From a virus (taxonomy: Duplodnaviria > Heunggongvirae > Uroviricota > Caudoviricetes), in the IMG/VR virus record IMGVR_UViG_2565956608_000007, positions 1 to 42,407 of that record: 42,407 nucleotides of DNA; one strand, 5' to 3'. The translations under genes were made by a program, and so were the position numbers. Position 1 is the first letter of the stretch. Each line of letters begins with the position of its first letter. Positions 1,815 through 41,710 of the stretch are shown here, one piece after another. The notes under the pieces were generated by a model, which saw only the letters and a list, made by a program, of their open reading frames with translations, made no database searches and was not told the DNA's origin.

Positions 1815-2987
1815 CTACAGCGCGGCTGAAATCGCGGTTTTACCGTCATATTCAGCCAGGTATTTACCGTAGTTGCGGAATATCATTTCCGGCCCTTTGT
1901 GGCCCATCTGTCCGGCAAGCCAGAATAGGTTAACGCCCTGGCTAATATGCTTGGTGGCGAATGTGTGCCGCGTCTGGTACGGGTTACGATAGCGCACGCC
2001 AGCTTTTTTCAGGGTCGGCACCCATGCTTTTTTACGGATAGCGTCGGCGTTCGCCCAGGGGTCTCCCGTTTTCGGGTCGCTGAATATGAACTCACTTTTC
2101 ATGAAGGTGTATTGCTTCTGCGCCTGCAGGGCCGCCAGCGCCTCACTGTTCAGCTCCACCTTTCGGGTACCGGCTTTTGTCTTGGTGCCTTTAAGTACCC
2201 CTACGACACTGGCCGCCTGAACGTGGGCTGTGTTCGCGATGGTGTCGAGATCAGGCCAGCGCAGCGCGCACAGTTCGGAGCTCCGCAGACCGGTATTGAA
2301 AGCAAAGCGGAACAGGTTTTCCCATTCCGGGTACCTGCAGCTCTGGTAAATGGCGAGGGTCTCCGCTGGCGTGAACGGGTCAACCTCGTAATCGTCGGCG
2401 CTCGGGCTGCTGTCGATCACGTGGTACCGGCTGGCGCTGACGAGGGTTACCGGGTTAATGGTCAGCAGGCCATCCGTAACAGCTTCATCGATGGCGCTGC
2501 GCAGAAATGAAAGGTTATTCCTGGTCGTTTTCAGTTTTGTTTTCCGGCTGGCTATCCAGTTTTTAAGGACCGCTGGCGTCAGTTCTGACACGTGGAGTTT
2601 ATGCAGGGCTGACAGCGCCGACAGGCATTTTTCATAACCGTTGATAGTCGACGGGGACAGGTTGCGGTTCTGGCAGATTTTCAGGTACTCGTCCAGGTAA
2701 GACTTTATGTTTTTGGTTTTCTTCACCACCCCGAACAGCTCCAGTTTTTTGGAGTTGGGGAAATATTTCGCATATTCAAAGGTGCCACTGACGATCTGGT
2801 TTTGTATCTCCCCGAGCAGGCGCTCGGCGTACTTAACACCGCGCGCGTTTGCTTCCATTTTGGAGAGGGGCTCCCGGCACAGAACCCCTTTGTATGTGAA
2901 AGTGATAACCAGAGTGTCGCCAGTTTTATGCTGGCGGATGGTTACTCCTCTTGGGAGAGATAATGATCCTTGTTCTTTCTTGCCCAC
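1815..2987 (-). CDS. int: tyrosine integrase (lambda-type site-specific recombinase)
   Basis: 390-aa ORF with C-terminal R..HxxR..Y catalytic signature (RHTFATKHI ... RNYGKY); 3' end abuts attL. Confidence 0.9.
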   Translation of the reverse strand: MGKKEQGSLSLPRGVTIRQHKTGDTLVITFTYKGVLCREPLSKMEANARGVKYAERLLGEIQNQIVSGTFEYAKYFPNSKKLELFGVVKKTKNIKSYLDEYLKICQNRNLSPSTINGYEKCLSALSALHKLHVSELTPAVLKNWIASRKTKLKTTRNNLSFLRSAIDEAVTDGLLTINPVTLVSASRYHVIDSSPSADDYEVDPFTPAETLAIYQSCRYPEWENLFRFAFNTGLRSSELCALRWPDLDTIANTAHVQAASVVGVLKGTKTKAGTRKVELNSEALAALQAQKQYTFMKSEFIFSDPKTGDPWANADAIRKKAWVPTLKKAGVRYRNPYQTRHTFATKHISQGVNLFWLAGQMGHKGPEMIFRNYGKYLAEYDGKTAISAAL

Positions 2988-8415: not shown

Positions 8416-10287
8416 ATGACCCCTGCTGAGTTATCTGAAAAATTGTGGGACAACGCCGAAAGAGTTGCGAAATACCTGCTTCCACGAGGACACCTCGAGG
8501 GCAAGGAGTGGTGCGCTGGTAATACCAATGGTGATGCCGGTAAGAGCCTGAAAATCAATCTCGGGGGTAAGAAGACTTGGGCGGATTTTGCAAGCGGCGA
8601 CAGCGGAGACCTGCTGGATCTTTGGGTGTTGGTGCGTAACTGCCAACTGCACGACGCTATGCGAGAAGCGAAAGAGTTCCTTGGGCTGAAGGACGACGAT
8701 AACCACTTTGAGGCAAAGAAGAAGACCTTCTCTCGCCCAACCAAAAAAGGCGTTAAAAAGGCGAGTCATTGCTACGACTACCTGGCTTCCCGTGGTATCA
8801 CCCGGGAGACAGCCGATCAATTCCGTGTTTCGGATGCAGTTGTCTGGTACCACGATGAAAACCGCGAAATTCCGGCAGTAGCGTTTCCGTATCTTCGCAA
8901 TGGCGAGCTGTTGCAGGTAAAGCGAATCGGCACTGAACGACCAAATGGCAAAAAGTTGATCATGGCTGAGGCGGATTGCGAACCATGTCTGTTTGGCTGG
9001 CAGGCTATGGACGCGAAAGCCCGAGCTGTTGTGCTTTGCGAAGGAGAGATTGACTGTATGACCTACTCGCAATTCGGTATCAGTGCTCTATCGGTACCGT
9101 TCGGCGGGGGAAAAGGTGCCAAACAGCAGTGGATCGAATACGAGTATCACAACCTCGACCGATTCGAAGAAATTTGGTTAAGCCTCGATAACGATGATGT
9201 TGGGCGGGAAGCCGCAAAAGAAATTGCTCGCCGTCTGGGTGAGCATCGTTGCCGCCTGGTAGAGCTGCCGCACAAAGATATCAACGAATGCCTAACTGCC
9301 GGGGTGAGCGAGGATGAAATCTGGCAATACTTAGGGACCGCTAAATTCTTTGACCCTGATGAACTCTGTTCTGCGGGTGATCTCCTTCAGGAAACACTGG
9401 ATGCATTCGAACATCGAGATGTTGGGTTATTTTCCAGCCCGTGGGATTCGCTGAACAATAATTTTAAATTCCGAGCCGGTGAACTGACGCTGGTTAACGG
9501 AGTGAACGGCCACGGTAAAACCGAGCTGGTGGGGCATATCGCAGTCAATGCCATGAGCCAAGGAGTTCGCGTATGCATTGCATCGCTGGAACTTAAGCCT
9601 GGGAAAATGTTGGCTCGTCTTACCCGGCAAACCATTTGCAGAAAAAACCCAGAACGTACTGAAATTATCATGACTAACGAGTGGTTTTCTGATCGTCTTT
9701 GGGTGTTCAAGCTCACCGGAACAGCAAAGGCCGGTCGTCTGTTGGAAATATTTGCCTATGCCAGACGCCGTTATGGAATCGATCTTTTCGTAATCGATAA
9801 CTTGGCAAAATGTGGGCTCGATGAAGAGGACTACGGTGGTCAGAAAGAATTTATCGATACCCTCTGCGACTTCAAAAATGAGCACAACTGCCATGTTCTG
9901 CTGGTAACGCATGCCAGAAAAACAAACGAAGCTGCACCAACAGGGAAAATGGATGTTAAAGGCACTGGCGCTTTAACCGACATGCCCGACAACGTTATGG
10001 CCGTCTGGCGTAATATCCCGCGAGAACTGGCGCAGCGCAAGGCTGAAAGAATGGGGTATGAGAGCCTTGATAAGGACGAGCAGACTGCTATCCAAATGCC
10101 CGCCTCAATGATTCGCCTGTTGAAACAACGTGAAGGGGAAGGCTGGATCGGAGACATAGGAGCCAATTTTGATTCCAGATCACATCAGTTTATCGAGGGT
10201 GATAAAGGGCCCTTCAATTACTTGGCTGGCAAACAGCAAAGTGAACTTGATATTGAGTGGGAAGCCACCAACGCAACGAGGTATTAA
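8416..10287 (+). CDS. bifunctional primase-helicase (Toprim domain + DnaB-like P-loop helicase)
   Basis: Toprim motif VVLCEGEIDCMTY; Walker A GVNGHGKTE and Walker B DLFVIDNL; GGAG ribosome-binding site before ATG at 8416. Confidence 0.8.
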   Translation: MTPAELSEKLWDNAERVAKYLLPRGHLEGKEWCAGNTNGDAGKSLKINLGGKKTWADFASGDSGDLLDLWVLVRNCQLHDAMREAKEFLGLKDDDNHFEAKKKTFSRPTKKGVKKASHCYDYLASRGITRETADQFRVSDAVVWYHDENREIPAVAFPYLRNGELLQVKRIGTERPNGKKLIMAEADCEPCLFGWQAMDAKARAVVLCEGEIDCMTYSQFGISALSVPFGGGKGAKQQWIEYEYHNLDRFEEIWLSLDNDDVGREAAKEIARRLGEHRCRLVELPHKDINECLTAGVSEDEIWQYLGTAKFFDPDELCSAGDLLQETLDAFEHRDVGLFSSPWDSLNNNFKFRAGELTLVNGVNGHGKTELVGHIAVNAMSQGVRVCIASLELKPGKMLARLTRQTICRKNPERTEIIMTNEWFSDRLWVFKLTGTAKAGRLLEIFAYARRRYGIDLFVIDNLAKCGLDEEDYGGQKEFIDTLCDFKNEHNCHVLLVTHARKTNEAAPTGKMDVKGTGALTDMPDNVMAVWRNIPRELAQRKAERMGYESLDKDEQTAIQMPASMIRLLKQREGEGWIGDIGANFDSRSHQFIEGDKGPFNYLAGKQQSELDIEWEATNATRY

Positions 10288-10289
10288 AA

Positions 10290-10601
10290 ATGGATCGCCT
10301 AATTAGAGAAATGTCGTACCTCTTTACCAAGCAGCGTTTTTTGGAGCTTCAGGAAGCGGCCAAAGACATCGCAATCGGTCATAGTGACTTTCCTGAGTGT
10401 TTCGGTCTTATTGCTGACGCCATCGCTGAATTTGTTGAAGACACTCCTGATGATGAGTGGCGAGAGTATGAAAAAATCCTCATGCACTACGTTGCTATGC
10501 GTACTCTGACGCTGTGGGGTAACGGGGATAAAGTTACTGATGTCCAGTGGGCACACCCTGGCTGGTTTGGCACTGCTGAAAAGGGAGAAACCATTCAATG
10601 A
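10290..10601 (+). CDS. hypothetical protein
   Basis: 103-aa ORF, stop overlaps the next start (ATGA). Confidence 0.5.
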   Translation: MDRLIREMSYLFTKQRFLELQEAAKDIAIGHSDFPECFGLIADAIAEFVEDTPDDEWREYEKILMHYVAMRTLTLWGNGDKVTDVQWAHPGWFGTAEKGETIQ

Positions 10602-11380
10602 AACTGGAAGCAGCACTCAAACATTTTAGTCCTCAGGGAATGCATATCAGCGACGATGTAAAGGGAACCTCTCCGGATCGTCTCACCGGCACTGATGTTA
10701 TGGCAGCGATTGGTACCACCAGCAGCCGTGCGCGGTTCGGCCTGGCGGCGTTCTTCGGTAAAGCGGGAATCAGCAAAACGGATGAACAGCTCGCAGTTCA
10801 GGCGCTGGCGCGATATGCGATGGATGTCGCACCGAAGAATGTTCGCAAAGCAGCTGGTGGCCAGTTCGGATGGTGTATGCAGATGTTGGCACAATTTGCC
10901 TTTGCTGATTACTCACGTTCAGCGGCTACCAGCGTGACGTGTCACAGTTGCAGTGGTACCGGGTTTATCTCCAGGAATGAGGATGTGGTTAAACATCCTG
11001 GTATTTTCGACGCCGACGGTGCTGAAGTAGTTGCCCCGAAGATTAAAAATGAGCTGGTGAATAGGGTTTGCGGAACATGCGGAGGAAAGAAAGTGATCCT
11101 TGCCCGGTGCAGGTGTGGCGGTAAAGGCGAAGTGTTGGACCGCAAAGCGACCAAAGACCGCGGCGCACCGGTTTTCAAAACGTGTGAACGTTGCTCTGGT
11201 AATGGCTTCTCTGCTATCTCCTCGGCTACAGTACACCGCGCCATTCTGAAGCGTCTCCCTGACCTCCATCAATCCTCATGGTCACGCAACTGGAAACCCT
11301 TCTATGAAATGCTGGTGGATACTCTGCGCCAGGGGGAGCGTCACGCAGCAGTGGAATTTGAGAAGGCGACAACTTATTAA
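10598..11380 (+). CDS. zinc-finger protein, putative late-gene antiterminator (Q-like)
   Basis: Four CxxCxGxG motifs; located between replication and lysis modules and followed by a promoter plus terminator pair. Confidence 0.4.
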   Translation: MKLEAALKHFSPQGMHISDDVKGTSPDRLTGTDVMAAIGTTSSRARFGLAAFFGKAGISKTDEQLAVQALARYAMDVAPKNVRKAAGGQFGWCMQMLAQFAFADYSRSAATSVTCHSCSGTGFISRNEDVVKHPGIFDADGAEVVAPKIKNELVNRVCGTCGGKKVILARCRCGGKGEVLDRKATKDRGAPVFKTCERCSGNGFSAISSATVHRAILKRLPDLHQSSWSRNWKPFYEMLVDTLRQGERHAAVEFEKATTY

Positions 11381-11442
11381 TATGATCGGAGCAAATGTCG
11401 ACACTTTTTTGCGCGTTAGTGTTGACTTTGCATAAGGTTGTC

Positions 11443-11470
11443 TTGTAAGCTTCTGATTATGGAGTATAAC
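11443..11470 (+). promoter_or_regulatory. candidate late promoter (PR'-like): -35 TTGTAA, 16-bp spacer, -10 TATAAC
   Basis: Sigma70-like hexamers read by eye directly downstream of the Q-like gene and about 25 bp upstream of a terminator. Confidence 0.3.
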
Positions 11471-11494
11471 GCCTGTAGATAATTAACCTCGAAA

Positions 11495-11519
11495 AGCCCG
11501 CCACGTTGCGGGTTTTTTT
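11495..11519 (+). terminator. Rho-independent terminator (tR'-like)
   Basis: CCCGC-loop-GCGGG hairpin followed by TTTTTTT. Confidence 0.55.
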
Positions 11520-11674
11520 GTACCCGCATTTCCCGCGCACCGCCCGCGCATTCAATACGTCGAACCAATCCATTTGAAATGAGCCTTTGAGGAAGTCAGT
11601 TAGCGCTGGCGAGCCTCGACGGGCTGGTTTCCTGTGCGGCAAAGGTTCATTTCAAAGTAAGGCATACGCATATC

Positions 11675-12160
11675 ATGAGCATCACGCAAGAACGGCTGAA
11701 AGAGGTTCTGAAGTACGACCCTTTGACTGGTTTATTTGTTTGGATCAAGCGAACAAACTCTCGGTCTACGCCAGGCAATATAGCCGGGAACGCAGATACG
11801 TACGGCTATATCCAGATAATGATCGATAAGAAATTAATCTTCGCTCATCGGTTGGCTTTTTTATACATGGATGGTGCGCTGCCGCCAGCTGATAAGTGTG
11901 TCGATCATATCAATGGCAATCCCAAAGATAACCGATGGGACAACTTACGTATCGTTACCCAGTTTGTTAATCAGCAGAACAGGCATAAGGCCAGAAAAGG
12001 TGCGAAATCTGGGCTAATTGGAGCAAACTGGTGCAAGGATCGTGGCCTGTGGCGTTCTGCGATTAGCGTCAACGGGAAACGCAAAGATCTCGGTAGTTTC
12101 CAAACTGCGGAGTTGGCTCACGAGGCTTACATGAAAGCTAAAGCTGAAATGTGTCGTTAA
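11675..12160 (+). CDS. HNH homing-type endonuclease
   Basis: DHINGNPKDNRWDNLR HNH motif. Confidence 0.7.
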   Translation: MSITQERLKEVLKYDPLTGLFVWIKRTNSRSTPGNIAGNADTYGYIQIMIDKKLIFAHRLAFLYMDGALPPADKCVDHINGNPKDNRWDNLRIVTQFVNQQNRHKARKGAKSGLIGANWCKDRGLWRSAISVNGKRKDLGSFQTAELAHEAYMKAKAEMCR

Positions 12161-12441
12161 CGCCTACACGAATAAAATAAATTAAGCCCTGCCTGTATTA
12201 GTGGGGCTATTTATTTTCTACACAACGGAAATCGCTTTGAGTATGTGACGACATCCCGGTGAGACCAGGCACACTTCCCTGGCGCGGCAAAGCGATACCC
12301 ATTGTGATGAAGCTCAGCGGCGAGCTAGGGAATAGTTTTGCGGTGAATATTCTGGATAAGTAGCCACAAGGCGCGCGTAACCCAATCGGCAGCGCACCGA
12401 TGGAAGCTGGTTCGACTCCAGCCTTCACAATCATTACTACG

Positions 12442-12465
12442 GGCTACCTTCGGGTGGCCTTTTTT
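12442..12465 (+). terminator. Rho-independent terminator with UUCG tetraloop
   Basis: GGCTACC-TTCG-GGTGGCC followed by TTTTTT. Confidence 0.55.
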
Positions 12466-12682
12466 GTTTCCCCTCCTTCTGAGAGAACTCACGGCAATGA
12501 AGTATTGACCGGCGGAATGATTTCGGCGTAATTTGTTTGTGTGGTGAATCCTTTCTAAGCGAAAGGGCGTTCCAGTCAACTGCTATCTGCAGGTATGCGC
12601 GCGGCTTTGCTGACTGGGGTAGAGTCACCGGGAGGCACCCGGCACCATGACAACAACAATACAAGTTTCAAATTCCTTGAGA

Positions 12683-12710
12683 GCCTGCCATAAAACGCAG
12701 GCCTTTTTTT
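12683..12710 (+). terminator. Rho-independent terminator
   Basis: GCCTGC-loop-GCAGGC followed by TTTTTTT. Confidence 0.55.
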
Positions 12711-12860
12711 ATGGTTTTGCAAACTGCTGCTACGCTTTGAGTTGTGGGAAGTAACTGAATGCCCGGTGGTTCTCCTGGACCGATAGTGAATCAGCCGATA
12801 CAGCTTCACCTCTGAGCATAAGTCTTACTCACACCTACCTTACAAATAGTCAACTCATTA

Positions 12861-12887
12861 GCCCGCCATCAACAGCGGGCTTTTATT
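12861..12887 (+). terminator. Rho-independent terminator
   Basis: GCCCGC-loop-GCGGGC followed by TTTTATT. Confidence 0.5.
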
Positions 12888-12939
12888 ATTTCCCCTCAAA
12901 CTTACTGAGAGGATTCATAGCAATTACAGAGGGGGCGTA

Positions 12940-13329
12940 ATGTCCGATCCATTAACCGGCACTGGTGCAGTTCTCGGCGGAGGCCTGCTGGGTTCAGTCC
13001 TGTATGGTGTCTTTACTCATACAGATTTCGGCGTGGTGTTTGGAGCGTTTGGTGGTGCGGTGTTTTACGTCGCGACAGCTGCAAACCTTACGCGTGCTCG
13101 CCTGGCTGCATATTTCCTTACATCATTCATTGTTGGAGTGCTTGGCGCCGGGTTTGTTGGTTCATGGCTAAATGCTGCCTCGAGTTATGAAAAACCACTG
13201 GATGCACTCGGTGCAGTGATTTTGTCTGCACTGTGTATAAAAATCCTAACTTTTCTTAATAACCAGGACCTGAACACCCTGTTCGGTTTTTTCTCACGGT
13301 TACGCGGAGGAGGGGGAAATGGTAATTGA
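12940..13329 (+). CDS. holin
   Basis: 129-aa hydrophobic protein with multiple predicted transmembrane segments at the head of the lysis cassette; GAGGGGG ribosome-binding site. Confidence 0.65.
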   Translation: MSDPLTGTGAVLGGGLLGSVLYGVFTHTDFGVVFGAFGGAVFYVATAANLTRARLAAYFLTSFIVGVLGAGFVGSWLNAASSYEKPLDALGAVILSALCIKILTFLNNQDLNTLFGFFSRLRGGGGNGN

Positions 13330-13597
13330 CCCGTCAGCTGTCTTTAACGCGTTTATCTGCTCGGTGATCGTCGTCGTTCTGATGTTCTACCAGCGCCATG
13401 GTGCCCGGCACCGTCCTTTTATCTCAATCCTGGCGTATATAACCATCCTGGTTTACGCAGTAATCCCATGGCAATTCATCTTCGGCCTCTATCGTGACTC
13501 CAGTTGGCTGGTGGTGATGTCGAACCTCCTGATATGCGCAGCTGTTATGAAGGTCCGGGGAAATCTGGCACGTCTGGTTGATCTTCTGAGGCACTAA
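13319..13597 (+). CDS. second holin-like membrane protein
   Basis: 92-aa hydrophobic protein between holin and endolysin. Confidence 0.5.
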   Translation: MVIDPSAVFNAFICSVIVVVLMFYQRHGARHRPFISILAYITILVYAVIPWQFIFGLYRDSSWLVVMSNLLICAAVMKVRGNLARLVDLLRH

Positions 13598-14139
13598 TGA
13601 CAAAAGACGAAATTTTTGACGCCATTCTTGGCAAAGAGGGCGGGTACGTTAATCACCCCGACGACAAAGGCGGCCCAACAAACTGGGGGATCACGCAAGC
13701 GGTAGCTCGCGCCCACGGTTATAACGGTGATATGCGCAACCTTACCCGCCAGCAGGCGCTGGATATCCTGACTGCTGACTACTGGACAGGGCCACGCTTC
13801 GACCTTGTTTCTGAGGTATCACCAGCCATCGCTGCCGAACTCTGCGACACAGGCGTAAACATGGGCCCATCAGTTCAGACCAAATGGTTTCAGCGCTGGC
13901 TGAATGTGTTCAACATTCAAGGCACGCTCTATCCCGATCTGATTGCTGATGGTTTTATCGGTCCGCGAACTATCAGCGCGTTAAAAAGCTATCTTTCCCG
14001 GCGCGGAAAAGAGGGTGAGTTGGTTATGCTTCGGGCCCTGAATTGTAGCCAGGGTCAGCGTTATCTTGAGCTGGCAGAACAGCGCAGCGCGAACGAGACG
14101 TTTGTTTATGGCTGGGTAAAGGAGCGGGTGGTTATATGA
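13597..14139 (+). CDS. endolysin, GH108-type muramidase with peptidoglycan-binding domain
   Basis: N-terminal motif EGGYVNHPDDKGGPTNWGIT characteristic of GH108 lysins; start overlaps upstream stop (TAATG). Confidence 0.85.
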   Translation: MTKDEIFDAILGKEGGYVNHPDDKGGPTNWGITQAVARAHGYNGDMRNLTRQQALDILTADYWTGPRFDLVSEVSPAIAAELCDTGVNMGPSVQTKWFQRWLNVFNIQGTLYPDLIADGFIGPRTISALKSYLSRRGKEGELVMLRALNCSQGQRYLELAEQRSANETFVYGWVKERVVI

Positions 14140-14405
14140 CGCTTGAGTTGATTACCGGATTCGTTATCGCGGTGTTTGCTGCTATTGCCGCCGCGTTTGG
14201 CCTGGGTCATTCACGCGGAACCAGCAAAGCGGAAGCGAAATCAGAACTGCAGCGCACCGAAGATAATGCAGCGGCCACGGTCGCAGCAGCAGATCGCCGG
14301 GTAGAGACAACGAAAGAGGCCAGCAATGTACAGCAGACCGTTAACCATATGCCTGGCGATGATGTTGATCGTGAGCTGCGCACAAACTGGACCCGTAAAG
14401 GTTGA
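14136..14405 (+). CDS. i-spanin (Rz-like)
   Basis: N-terminal transmembrane helix then charged periplasmic region; ATGA overlap with endolysin stop. Confidence 0.65.
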   Translation: MTLELITGFVIAVFAAIAAAFGLGHSRGTSKAEAKSELQRTEDNAAATVAAADRRVETTKEASNVQQTVNHMPGDDVDRELRTNWTRKG

Positions 14406-41347: not shown

Positions 41348-41710
41348 TGGTGGAGCTGGCGGGAGTTGAACCCGCGTCCGAAATTCCTACATCCTCGGTA
41401 CTACATGCTTAGTCAGTCTTTACATTCGCTTGCCAGCTGCGGACGGACACGCCACTAACAAACTAGCCTGATTAAGTTTTAACGCTTCAACCCCAGGCAG
41501 GGCTTCCACGCGATCTCTTTTGGGTTTGACCTCTCTTGATCCCCGTCCTAAGAGCGGAGGCTAGGGAGAGAGGGCTCTAAGCAGGTTATTAAGCTGCTAA
41601 AGCGTAGTTTTCGTCGTTTGCGACTATTTTTTGCGGCTTTTTACGAGGCCAACCGCCCCTCGGCATGCACCTTGGGTTTCGCAAATCCCGTCGAATCCAG
41701 AATCAGCCCC
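41348..41710 (-). ncRNA. ssrA: tmRNA (transfer-messenger RNA, SsrA)
   Basis: Minus-strand sequence begins GGGGCTGATTCTGGATTCGACGGG and ends ...GGTTCAACTCCCGCCAGCTCCACCA; 363 nt; directly downstream of smpB. Confidence 0.95.
41355..41384. repeat. attR core inside ssrA (GCTGGCGGGAGTTGAACCCGCGTCCGAAAT)
   Basis: 29/30 identical to 1663-1692. Confidence 0.65.

Follow-up and report, generated by a model that had tools for sequence, protein, structure and literature searches.

A lambda-family Q gene with an insertion in its zinc-ribbon arm and a putative PR′-tR′-like late switch in an enterobacterial prophage

The window analysed here is a 42,407-nucleotide (nt) stretch of DNA from a virus of the Caudoviricetes (IMG/VR record IMGVR_UViG_2565956608_000007, positions 1 to 42,407). 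A 260-residue open reading frame (ORF) on the plus strand (10598-11380), assigned to the Q position in an earlier, sequence-only reading, lies between replication genes and a lysis cassette; it encodes a classical member of the lambda Q antitermination protein family with an insertion in its zinc-ribbon arm. Together with the sequence 3′ of it, in which counterparts of the lambda late promoter PR′, Q-binding element (QBE), pause element and terminator tR′ can be placed, this gene very probably constitutes the late-gene switch of a lambda-like temperate prophage. Family membership, gene order, the terminator hairpin and the conserved elements, with the register in which they stand, come directly from the analysis; a start site, a pause, Q binding and antitermination are predicted from the sequence. 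The cassette is of the known lambda/P22 kind (a textbook Q-PR′-tR′ unit), uncharacterised in this phage, with a two-knuckle-pair arm and a shifted pause element as minor variants. The earlier proposal of a Q-type antiterminator with a PR′-tR′-like terminated leader is supported by the protein family, the conserved elements, the gene position and the precedent of a 59-nt leader in P22.

The Q protein and its zinc-ribbon arm

The start ATG of the Q gene (Table 1) shares bases with the stop codon of the preceding ORF. The protein matches Pfam PF03589 ('Antitermination protein Q'; 178 bits, E=3.9e-53, cut-off 26.7), phrog_127 ('anti-termination protein Q-like'; E=1.5e-101, full length) and the solved lambda Q chains 7UBM, 4MO1 and 7UBJ (E=1.2e-35 to 5e-19). 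PF03589 denotes the Q-lambda family and is distinct from Q21 (PF06530) and Q82 (PF06323) (PMC9388147, PMC7171158), neither of which was matched by the window protein in the Pfam profile search. HMMER alignment with 7UBM_Q (E=1.2e-35) pairs residues 1-123 with lambda 1-126 and residues 169-245 with lambda 116-193, and the homology spans the N-terminal disordered nozzle-forming segment, the four-helix body with its helix-turn-helix (HTH) and the zinc-ribbon arm. In a MAFFT alignment lambda residues G39, A50 and T206 are kept, and V6, C53 and H56 are not (the roles of lambda Q residues and of its arm are taken from PMC9388147). The sequence-only reading had held that the protein does not resemble the classical lambda Q family, a view refuted by the PF03589 score and the match to 7UBM_Q; the homology search it had suggested as a check leads to the Q family (PF03589, phrog_127, 7UBM) and not to an unrelated function. 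Homologues are called Q in phages CharmingMan, Fraca, LMessi and others, and a Q homologue is found in 250 phage records, including lambda, P22 (gp23), SfV, HK225 and Stx2c phages. The long form accounts for 621 database clusters, most of them 260 residues long and bearing the name 'antitermination protein (Q)'; they come from Enterobacter, Klebsiella, Salmonella, Citrobacter and E. coli.

When aligned (MAFFT) with lambda Q, P22 gp23, SfV Q and Q of Klebsiella phage KPP5665-2, residues ~113-168 are missing from lambda and P22 and present in SfV and KPP5665-2. This ~50-residue insertion bears two extra Cys knuckles (C115xxC118 and C158xxC161) and falls inside the 'arm' of Q-lambda, a zinc ribbon formed by residues 114-152 (PMC9388147). 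C-terminal to the insertion, the four lambda zinc ligands C118, C121, C144 and C147 have C171, C173, C196 and C199 as their counterparts, and K186 lies opposite lambda E134; all eight Cys are invariant across 32 homologues. The Cys4 zinc ribbon of lambda Q is kept, the first of its knuckles being CxC and not CxxC, and zinc binding is predicted. The insertion with its own two knuckles may be a second zinc ribbon. An AlphaFold2 (AF2) model predicts the insertion as a long beta-hairpin (strands 123-133 and 148-157), with a predicted local distance difference test (pLDDT) score of 77-83 in the two strands. The model, built from a shallow alignment of 32 sequences of 79-96% identity, is poor overall (mean pLDDT 54.7, predicted template modelling score 0.26), and does not distinguish zinc sites with a nested pairing of the knuckles (1+4, 2+3) from sites with a tandem one (1+2, 3+4). 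Two of the four CxxCxGxG motifs previously noted in this protein are exact (C115HSCSGTG and C196ERCSGNG), and the other two read CxxCxGxK (C158GTCGGKK) and CxCxGxG (C171RCGGKG).

Putative late promoter, pause element and terminated leader

For conservation analysis, the sequence 3′ of the Q stop was taken from 80 IMG/VR loci, three phage records and the window (84 in total; Q 81-99% identical) and anchored gap-free on TTGACT, giving 54 distinct sequences on which all counts out of 54 are based. From the Q stop to the -10 the relatives are nearly identical, and past the -10 they fall into some seven modules that are unrelated to one another. Homology breakpoints fall at 11452, 11471-75 and 11519, and the leader is therefore a mosaic joint.

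TTGACT(11422-27)-18-TAAGCT(11446-51) is read as a sigma-70 late promoter equivalent to PR′. Its -35 hexamer is identical to that of PR′ in lambda and in P22, where it is annotated in the record. Position 11459 is a purine in 54/54 and was taken as the probable start of transcription (A11459). With the majority -10, TTGACT-18-TATGCT, the promoter was listed by a promoter scan in one relative (L036). The pattern TTGACT-N18-TANNNT occurs once in the window, yet 22 of 100 shuffled sequences had one match or more, and this count is no proof by itself; the promoter is argued from its conservation and from its homology to lambda and P22, including the annotated P22 P late. The window and five other loci (L010, L034, L043, L044, L065) share five clustered substitutions between 11436 and 11448, in the spacer and the -10, by which AAAACTGTCCTGTAT of the family majority becomes AAGGTTGTCTTGTAA; this cluster accounts for the weaker -10 (TAAGCT) and, by coincidence, creates a TTGTAA that had earlier been taken for a -35.

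The promoter spacer contains a QBE-like 13-mer, TTGCATAAGGTTG (family consensus TTGCATAAAACTG), which matches lambda TTGAATAAAATTG at 10/13 positions in the window and 11/13 in the consensus. This agreement depends on keeping the lambda register (27 nt to the pause element); at best 6-7/13 positions agree in any other. TTGCATAA (11428-35) and the final TG are invariant or nearly so, and the middle of the 13-mer varies. The comparison was made with the whole lambda promoter spacer; the exact lambda QBE is shown only in figures of PMC9388147. This likeness suggests that Q may bind at 11428-40.

The lambda pause-inducing AACGAT lies at +1 to +6, followed by a discriminator-like GGG, with the pause at +16 (PMC4005639). 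Its putative counterpart here is the -10-like GATTAT followed by GG, in which A11456 (54/54), T11457 (53/54), T11460 (54/54), G11461 (52/54) and G11462 (54/54) are conserved and hexamer positions 1, 4 and 5 vary freely among the relatives. The resulting nATnnT retains A2 and T6, the bases read by sigma region 2, and the sequence points to a sigma-dependent pause element. Downstream, C (53/54) and G (52/54) stand out in a variable background at 11470 and 11471. Counted from where the pause hexamer starts they lie at 16/17 nt, and CG is also found at this register in lambda, YeP3, KPP5665-2 and ST512-KPC3phi13.5 (ST512). A pause at this C-G would leave a 12-13-nt RNA, compatible with the 11-nt RNA of the lambda Q-loading structures. 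The lambda PR′ region reads TTGACT-TA-TTGAATAAAATTG-GG-TAAATT-TGACTC-AACGAT-GGG-TTAATT-CG and the window family, aligned on the pause hexamer, TTGACT-TTGCATAAAACTG-TCCTG-TATGCT-TTC-CATCGT-GGG-ATATTA-CG.

The intrinsic terminator reported earlier at 11495-11519 is real, and extends over 11491-11519 (AAAAGCCCGC-CACGTT-GCGGGTTTTTTT): a CCCGC/GCGGG core with a 6-nt loop is extended by A/U pairs to 11 pairs and followed by 7 T. A 63-nt leader folds, at a minimum free energy of -15.9 kcal/mol, into this 11-pair hairpin followed by U residues; the leader RNA itself would be ~61 nt. A GC hairpin with a T-tract is found at the same relative place in 84/84 related loci, the T-tract beginning 45-59 nt past the predicted start in nearly all of them, with variable loops and at least four stem types. 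The terminator was not listed by a consensus terminator scan, probably because the stem extension takes up part of the T-run. An Rfam search of 10000-14000 (E<=1) gave no match in the leader and only STnc100 further downstream, and ARAGORN found no tRNA in the leader. With its upstream A-tract and downstream T-tract, 11492-11519 can also be read as a minus-strand terminator; a convergent gene is not evident nearby, and the short ORFs that the CharmingMan annotation has on that strand appear to be spurious.

Measured from the pause hexamer, the T-tract ends after 65 nt in the window, 63 in ST512, 64 in KPP5665-2, 59 in P22, 65 in SfV, 55 in HK225, 58 in YeP3 and 56 in Kp4866-6, against 193 in lambda. 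An immediate terminator is the norm for lambda-family Q phages, and lambda is the exception.

In the switch proposed here, Q would be the last product of the early (replication) operon, and RNA polymerase would start at ~11459 from a constitutive sigma-70 promoter (TTGACT-18-TAAGCT) ~40 nt past the Q stop, with a lambda-like Q-binding element in its spacer. Sigma region 2 would re-bind the -10-like GATTAT-GG (11455-62) and the polymerase would pause, scrunched, at C11470/G11471 with a 12-13-nt RNA. Without Q, transcription would terminate at the hairpin and T7 (11491-11519) to give a ~61-nt RNA. Q on the spacer element would load onto the paused complex, as structurally shown for lambda Q, and the Q-modified polymerase would pass this terminator and at least four more hairpins, with readthrough into an HNH endonuclease gene, the lysis cassette and a ~25-kb structural operon.

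Table 1 Features of the Q cassette and of the surrounding prophage, with the basis for each.
Feature	Position	Strand	Basis
Integrase gene	1815-2987	-	
Q antitermination protein gene, lambda family, long-arm form, 260 residues	10598..11380	+	PF03589, phrog_127, lambda Q homology
Insertion relative to lambda Q and P22 gp23, codons ~113-168	10934..11101	+	alignment of lambda, P22, SfV and KPP5665-2 Q
Equivalent of lambda Q zinc ribbon, codons 171-203	11108..11206	+	HMMER alignment to 7UBM and 4MO1; MAFFT
-35 hexamer TTGACT of putative late promoter (PR′ equivalent)	11422..11427	+	invariant in 54/54
QBE-like 13-mer in promoter spacer	11428..11440	+	likeness to lambda PR′ spacer
-10 hexamer TAAGCT (majority form TATGCT), 18-nt spacer	11446..11451	+	T1 53/54, A2 54/54, T6 54/54
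Earlier promoter placement, TTGTAA (11443-48)-16-TATAAC (11465-70)	11443..11470	+	conservation table; absent from scan
Putative sigma-dependent pause element, -10-like GATTAT + GG	11455..11462	+	conservation; likeness to lambda AACGAT-GGG
Predicted pause site C-G	11470..11471	+	C 53/54, G 52/54 in variable background
Intrinsic terminator (tR′ equivalent): A-tract, stem, T7	11491..11519	+	leader fold, presence in relatives
HNH endonuclease gene with AP2-like domain, between tR′ and lysis genes	11675..12160	+	PF13392 HNH_3 E=5e-14, phrog_99 E=4e-59
Four terminator-like hairpins	12185-12208, 12441-12460, 12683-12702, 12860-12881	+	terminator scan
STnc100-like small RNA	12512-12714	+	Rfam RF02076, 55.7 bits, gathering score 47
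Lysis cassette (holin, holin, endolysin, spanin), first late genes	12940..14405	+	phrog_198, phrog_217, phrog_315, phrog_1026
Transfer-messenger RNA gene (ssrA)	41348-41710	-	

Known systems and alternative readings

A Q cassette is defined as a Q gene, PR′, a pause element and a terminator, and the same logic is found in Q21 and Q82 phages, whose Q proteins are unrelated in sequence and fold (PMC9388147). Comparison with lambda itself revealed a Q of the same family (PF03589), with homology in the nozzle-forming segment, HTH body and zinc ribbon, the same TTGACT -35, a spacer 13-mer identical at 10-11/13 positions and the same 27 nt from it to the pause hexamer, and in both a -10-like hexamer is followed by GG(G) and by C-G at register 16/17. 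Unlike lambda, the window has a Q with a ~50-residue insertion carrying two extra Cys knuckles and CxC in place of lambda C118/C121, a spacer of 18 and not 17 nt, a -10 lying 3 nt nearer the pause hexamer with the pause predicted at +12/13, no -35-like TTGACT directly before that hexamer, and a leader of ~61 against 193-194 nt.

P22 (gp23/P late/t late) also has a lambda-family Q, a terminator directly past the pause region and the lysis cassette next. Its record marks P late (TTGACT-17-TAAATT), t late and a qut site like that of lambda, and gives 37887 for the start and 37945 for the last base of the terminator, hence a leader of 59 nt compared with ~61 nt in the window. However, gp23 is a short form (207 residues, 34% identical to window Q), the P22 promoter is in the lambda register, and P22 has no HNH, small RNA (sRNA) or extra-terminator cargo ahead of the holin. 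The Q proteins of SfV, HK225 (likened in its annotation to the Q homologue of the Qin prophage) and KPP5665-2 are of ~250-270 residues, with the same two-knuckle insertion and a short terminated leader. KPP5665-2 and ST512-KPC3phi13.5 have the promoter and pause architecture exactly as in the window, while the Q proteins of SfV and HK225 are only 37-39% identical to window Q, and both phages have the lambda register (-10, 6 nt, AACGAT-GGG) with other spacer sequences. The third knuckle is CxxC in SfV Q and CxC in window Q.

Several observations weigh against a straightforward lambda-type switch. The -10 and the pause hexamer are separated by 3 nt in the window versus 6 nt in lambda, P22 and SfV, so that the hexamer overlaps the predicted start (-4 to +2, versus +1 to +6 in lambda) and the pause would fall at +12/13 instead of +16/17; sigma re-engagement as early as this is proposed from the sequence. 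The pause hexamer has no -35-like sequence directly 5′ of it, unlike lambda with its TTGACT, and the third Cys knuckle (C171) is CxC instead of CxxC. TTGACT-18-TAAGCT was not listed by the consensus promoter scan in the window, because TAAGCT matches the consensus at 3/6 positions and the spacer is 18 nt. The relatives are close (Q 92-99% identical), and this kinship accounts for a large part of the invariance 5′ of the -10. RNAalifold found 0 compensatory pairs among 20 distinct terminator segments, because the core and the commonest stem are (nearly) invariant and alternative stems misalign, and support for the terminator therefore consists of its presence and position. It is conceivable, though rather unlikely, that a long-arm Q with two knuckle pairs loads onto RNA polymerase by a geometry unlike that of lambda Q, capturing the polymerase at the 12-13-nt pause, nearly at promoter escape, with the extra ribbon replacing a contact between sigma region 4 and DNA or adding a contact to DNA or to the polymerase.

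The late promoter had earlier been placed at TTGTAA(11443)-16-TATAAC(11470), which would give a start near 11477 and a leader of only ~43 nt. These hexamers do exist 16 nt apart, the TAT of TATAAC is fairly conserved (45-53/54), and in the window variant a strong -10-like GATAAT (11478-83) comes next that could act as a pause element. However, the supposed -35 is CTGTAT in 52/54 relatives, the supposed -10 ends in C in 53/54 and never has the critical T, the pair was not listed by the promoter scan, and GATAAT is not conserved (CGACAC or CGAAAT in other modules). A promoter here would also leave the invariant TTGACT, the lambda-like 13-mer and nATnnT-GG unexplained. The stretch 11443-11470 covers the 3′ end of the spacer, the -10 proposed above, the pause element, the predicted start and the ~12 bases transcribed from there to the pause site. 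In the alignment with lambda, TATAAC corresponds to lambda +10 to +15, the AT-rich segment ahead of the pause site, and is most likely the AT-rich initially transcribed segment just 5′ of the predicted pause. The pair is probably not a promoter, misplaced by 21 nt relative to TTGACT-18-TAAGCT, and a start from it appears improbable.

Less probable still is a late promoter at TTGAGA(11358)-17-TATGAT(11386), across the Q stop, from which the TTGACT...TAAGCT block would be transcribed as part of a ~126-nt leader. This is the only plus-strand promoter-like site listed here by the scan (10/12 matches) and is listed in L036 as well, but within TATGAT the essential A2 is replaced by G in 8/54 relatives, T3 by G in 4/54 and T6 by A in 2/54, and the TTGAGA is conserved because it lies inside coding sequence. 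The site is not homologous to the mapped PR′ of lambda and P22, and is missing from KPP5665-2 (68% identical), which keeps TTGATT-18-TAATCT-TCA-AATCGT-GGG. It could serve as a minor additional promoter.

That the protein is a DnaJ-like zinc-finger chaperone and not a transcription factor, the terminator merely ending the early operon, is extremely improbable: four CxxCxGxG-type knuckles in a row do recall the DnaJ Cys-rich domain (PF00684), and some database records name homologues 'molecular chaperone' or 'putative chaperone', but these names stem from a weak, sub-threshold DnaJ_CXXCXGXG match (E=5.7e-4; 20.5 bits, cut-off 32.7), no J domain was matched, and the likeness is confined to the Cys knuckles of a protein homologous to lambda Q over its full length, N-terminal segment and HTH body included.

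Gene context, cargo and implications

5′ of Q are phrog_33270, a primase/helicase gene and a replication initiator gene, then a CI-like repressor gene on the opposite strand; the initiator, primase/helicase, phrog_33270 and Q form one plus-strand run with overlapping stop and start codons. On the other side of the switch, the lysis cassette (Table 1) is the presumed target of antitermination, and the terminase follows its holins, endolysin and spanin. In some relatives the terminator is ~60 nt from the holin, and in the window the HNH gene, four terminator-like hairpins and an sRNA lie in between. This cargo is all on the plus strand, which fits processive antitermination by Q.

The HNH gene is found in CharmingMan and in some IMG/VR loci, but Fraca and many others lack it at that place. 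It resembles a mobile or homing insertion, and would be cargo in the late leader that Q-modified polymerase must cross. The STnc100-like sRNA ends at the terminator-like hairpin 12683-12702, and a 2026 preprint ties STnc100 to prophage PasD sRNAs. The segment around it (12504-12900) is similar to part of HK639, where two terminators are annotated. The plus-strand stretch 12340-12460 has a tRNA T-arm-like GGTTCGACTCCAGCC at its end, followed by a hairpin and T-run (12441-12460), and may be a tRNA remnant; neither ARAGORN nor Rfam identified a tRNA there, and the relative YeP3 has tRNA genes at the equivalent place.

The prophage (~39.7 kb) lies between two direct copies, 30 nt long and 29/30 identical, of the ssrA 3′ end (1663-1692 and 41355-41384), with csiD on the left and smpB on the right. 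It is therefore complete in the window and integrated at ssrA. An acyltransferase-3 family gene (PF01757; 39625-40671, minus strand) at the right end of the prophage may be an O-antigen-modifying lysogenic-conversion gene.

This analysis supplies predicted positions for PR′, tR′ and the Q-binding and pause elements of a very common Enterobacteriaceae prophage lineage, and has little import beyond annotation. The two-knuckle-pair arm, together with a pause element 3 nt nearer the promoter, may interest transcription specialists. A short, ~60-nt leader of the P22 type is the usual arrangement in lambda-family Q phages, and the region from tR′ to the lysis genes is a mosaic cargo slot, occupied here by an HNH gene and an STnc100-like sRNA, whose expression would be Q-dependent.

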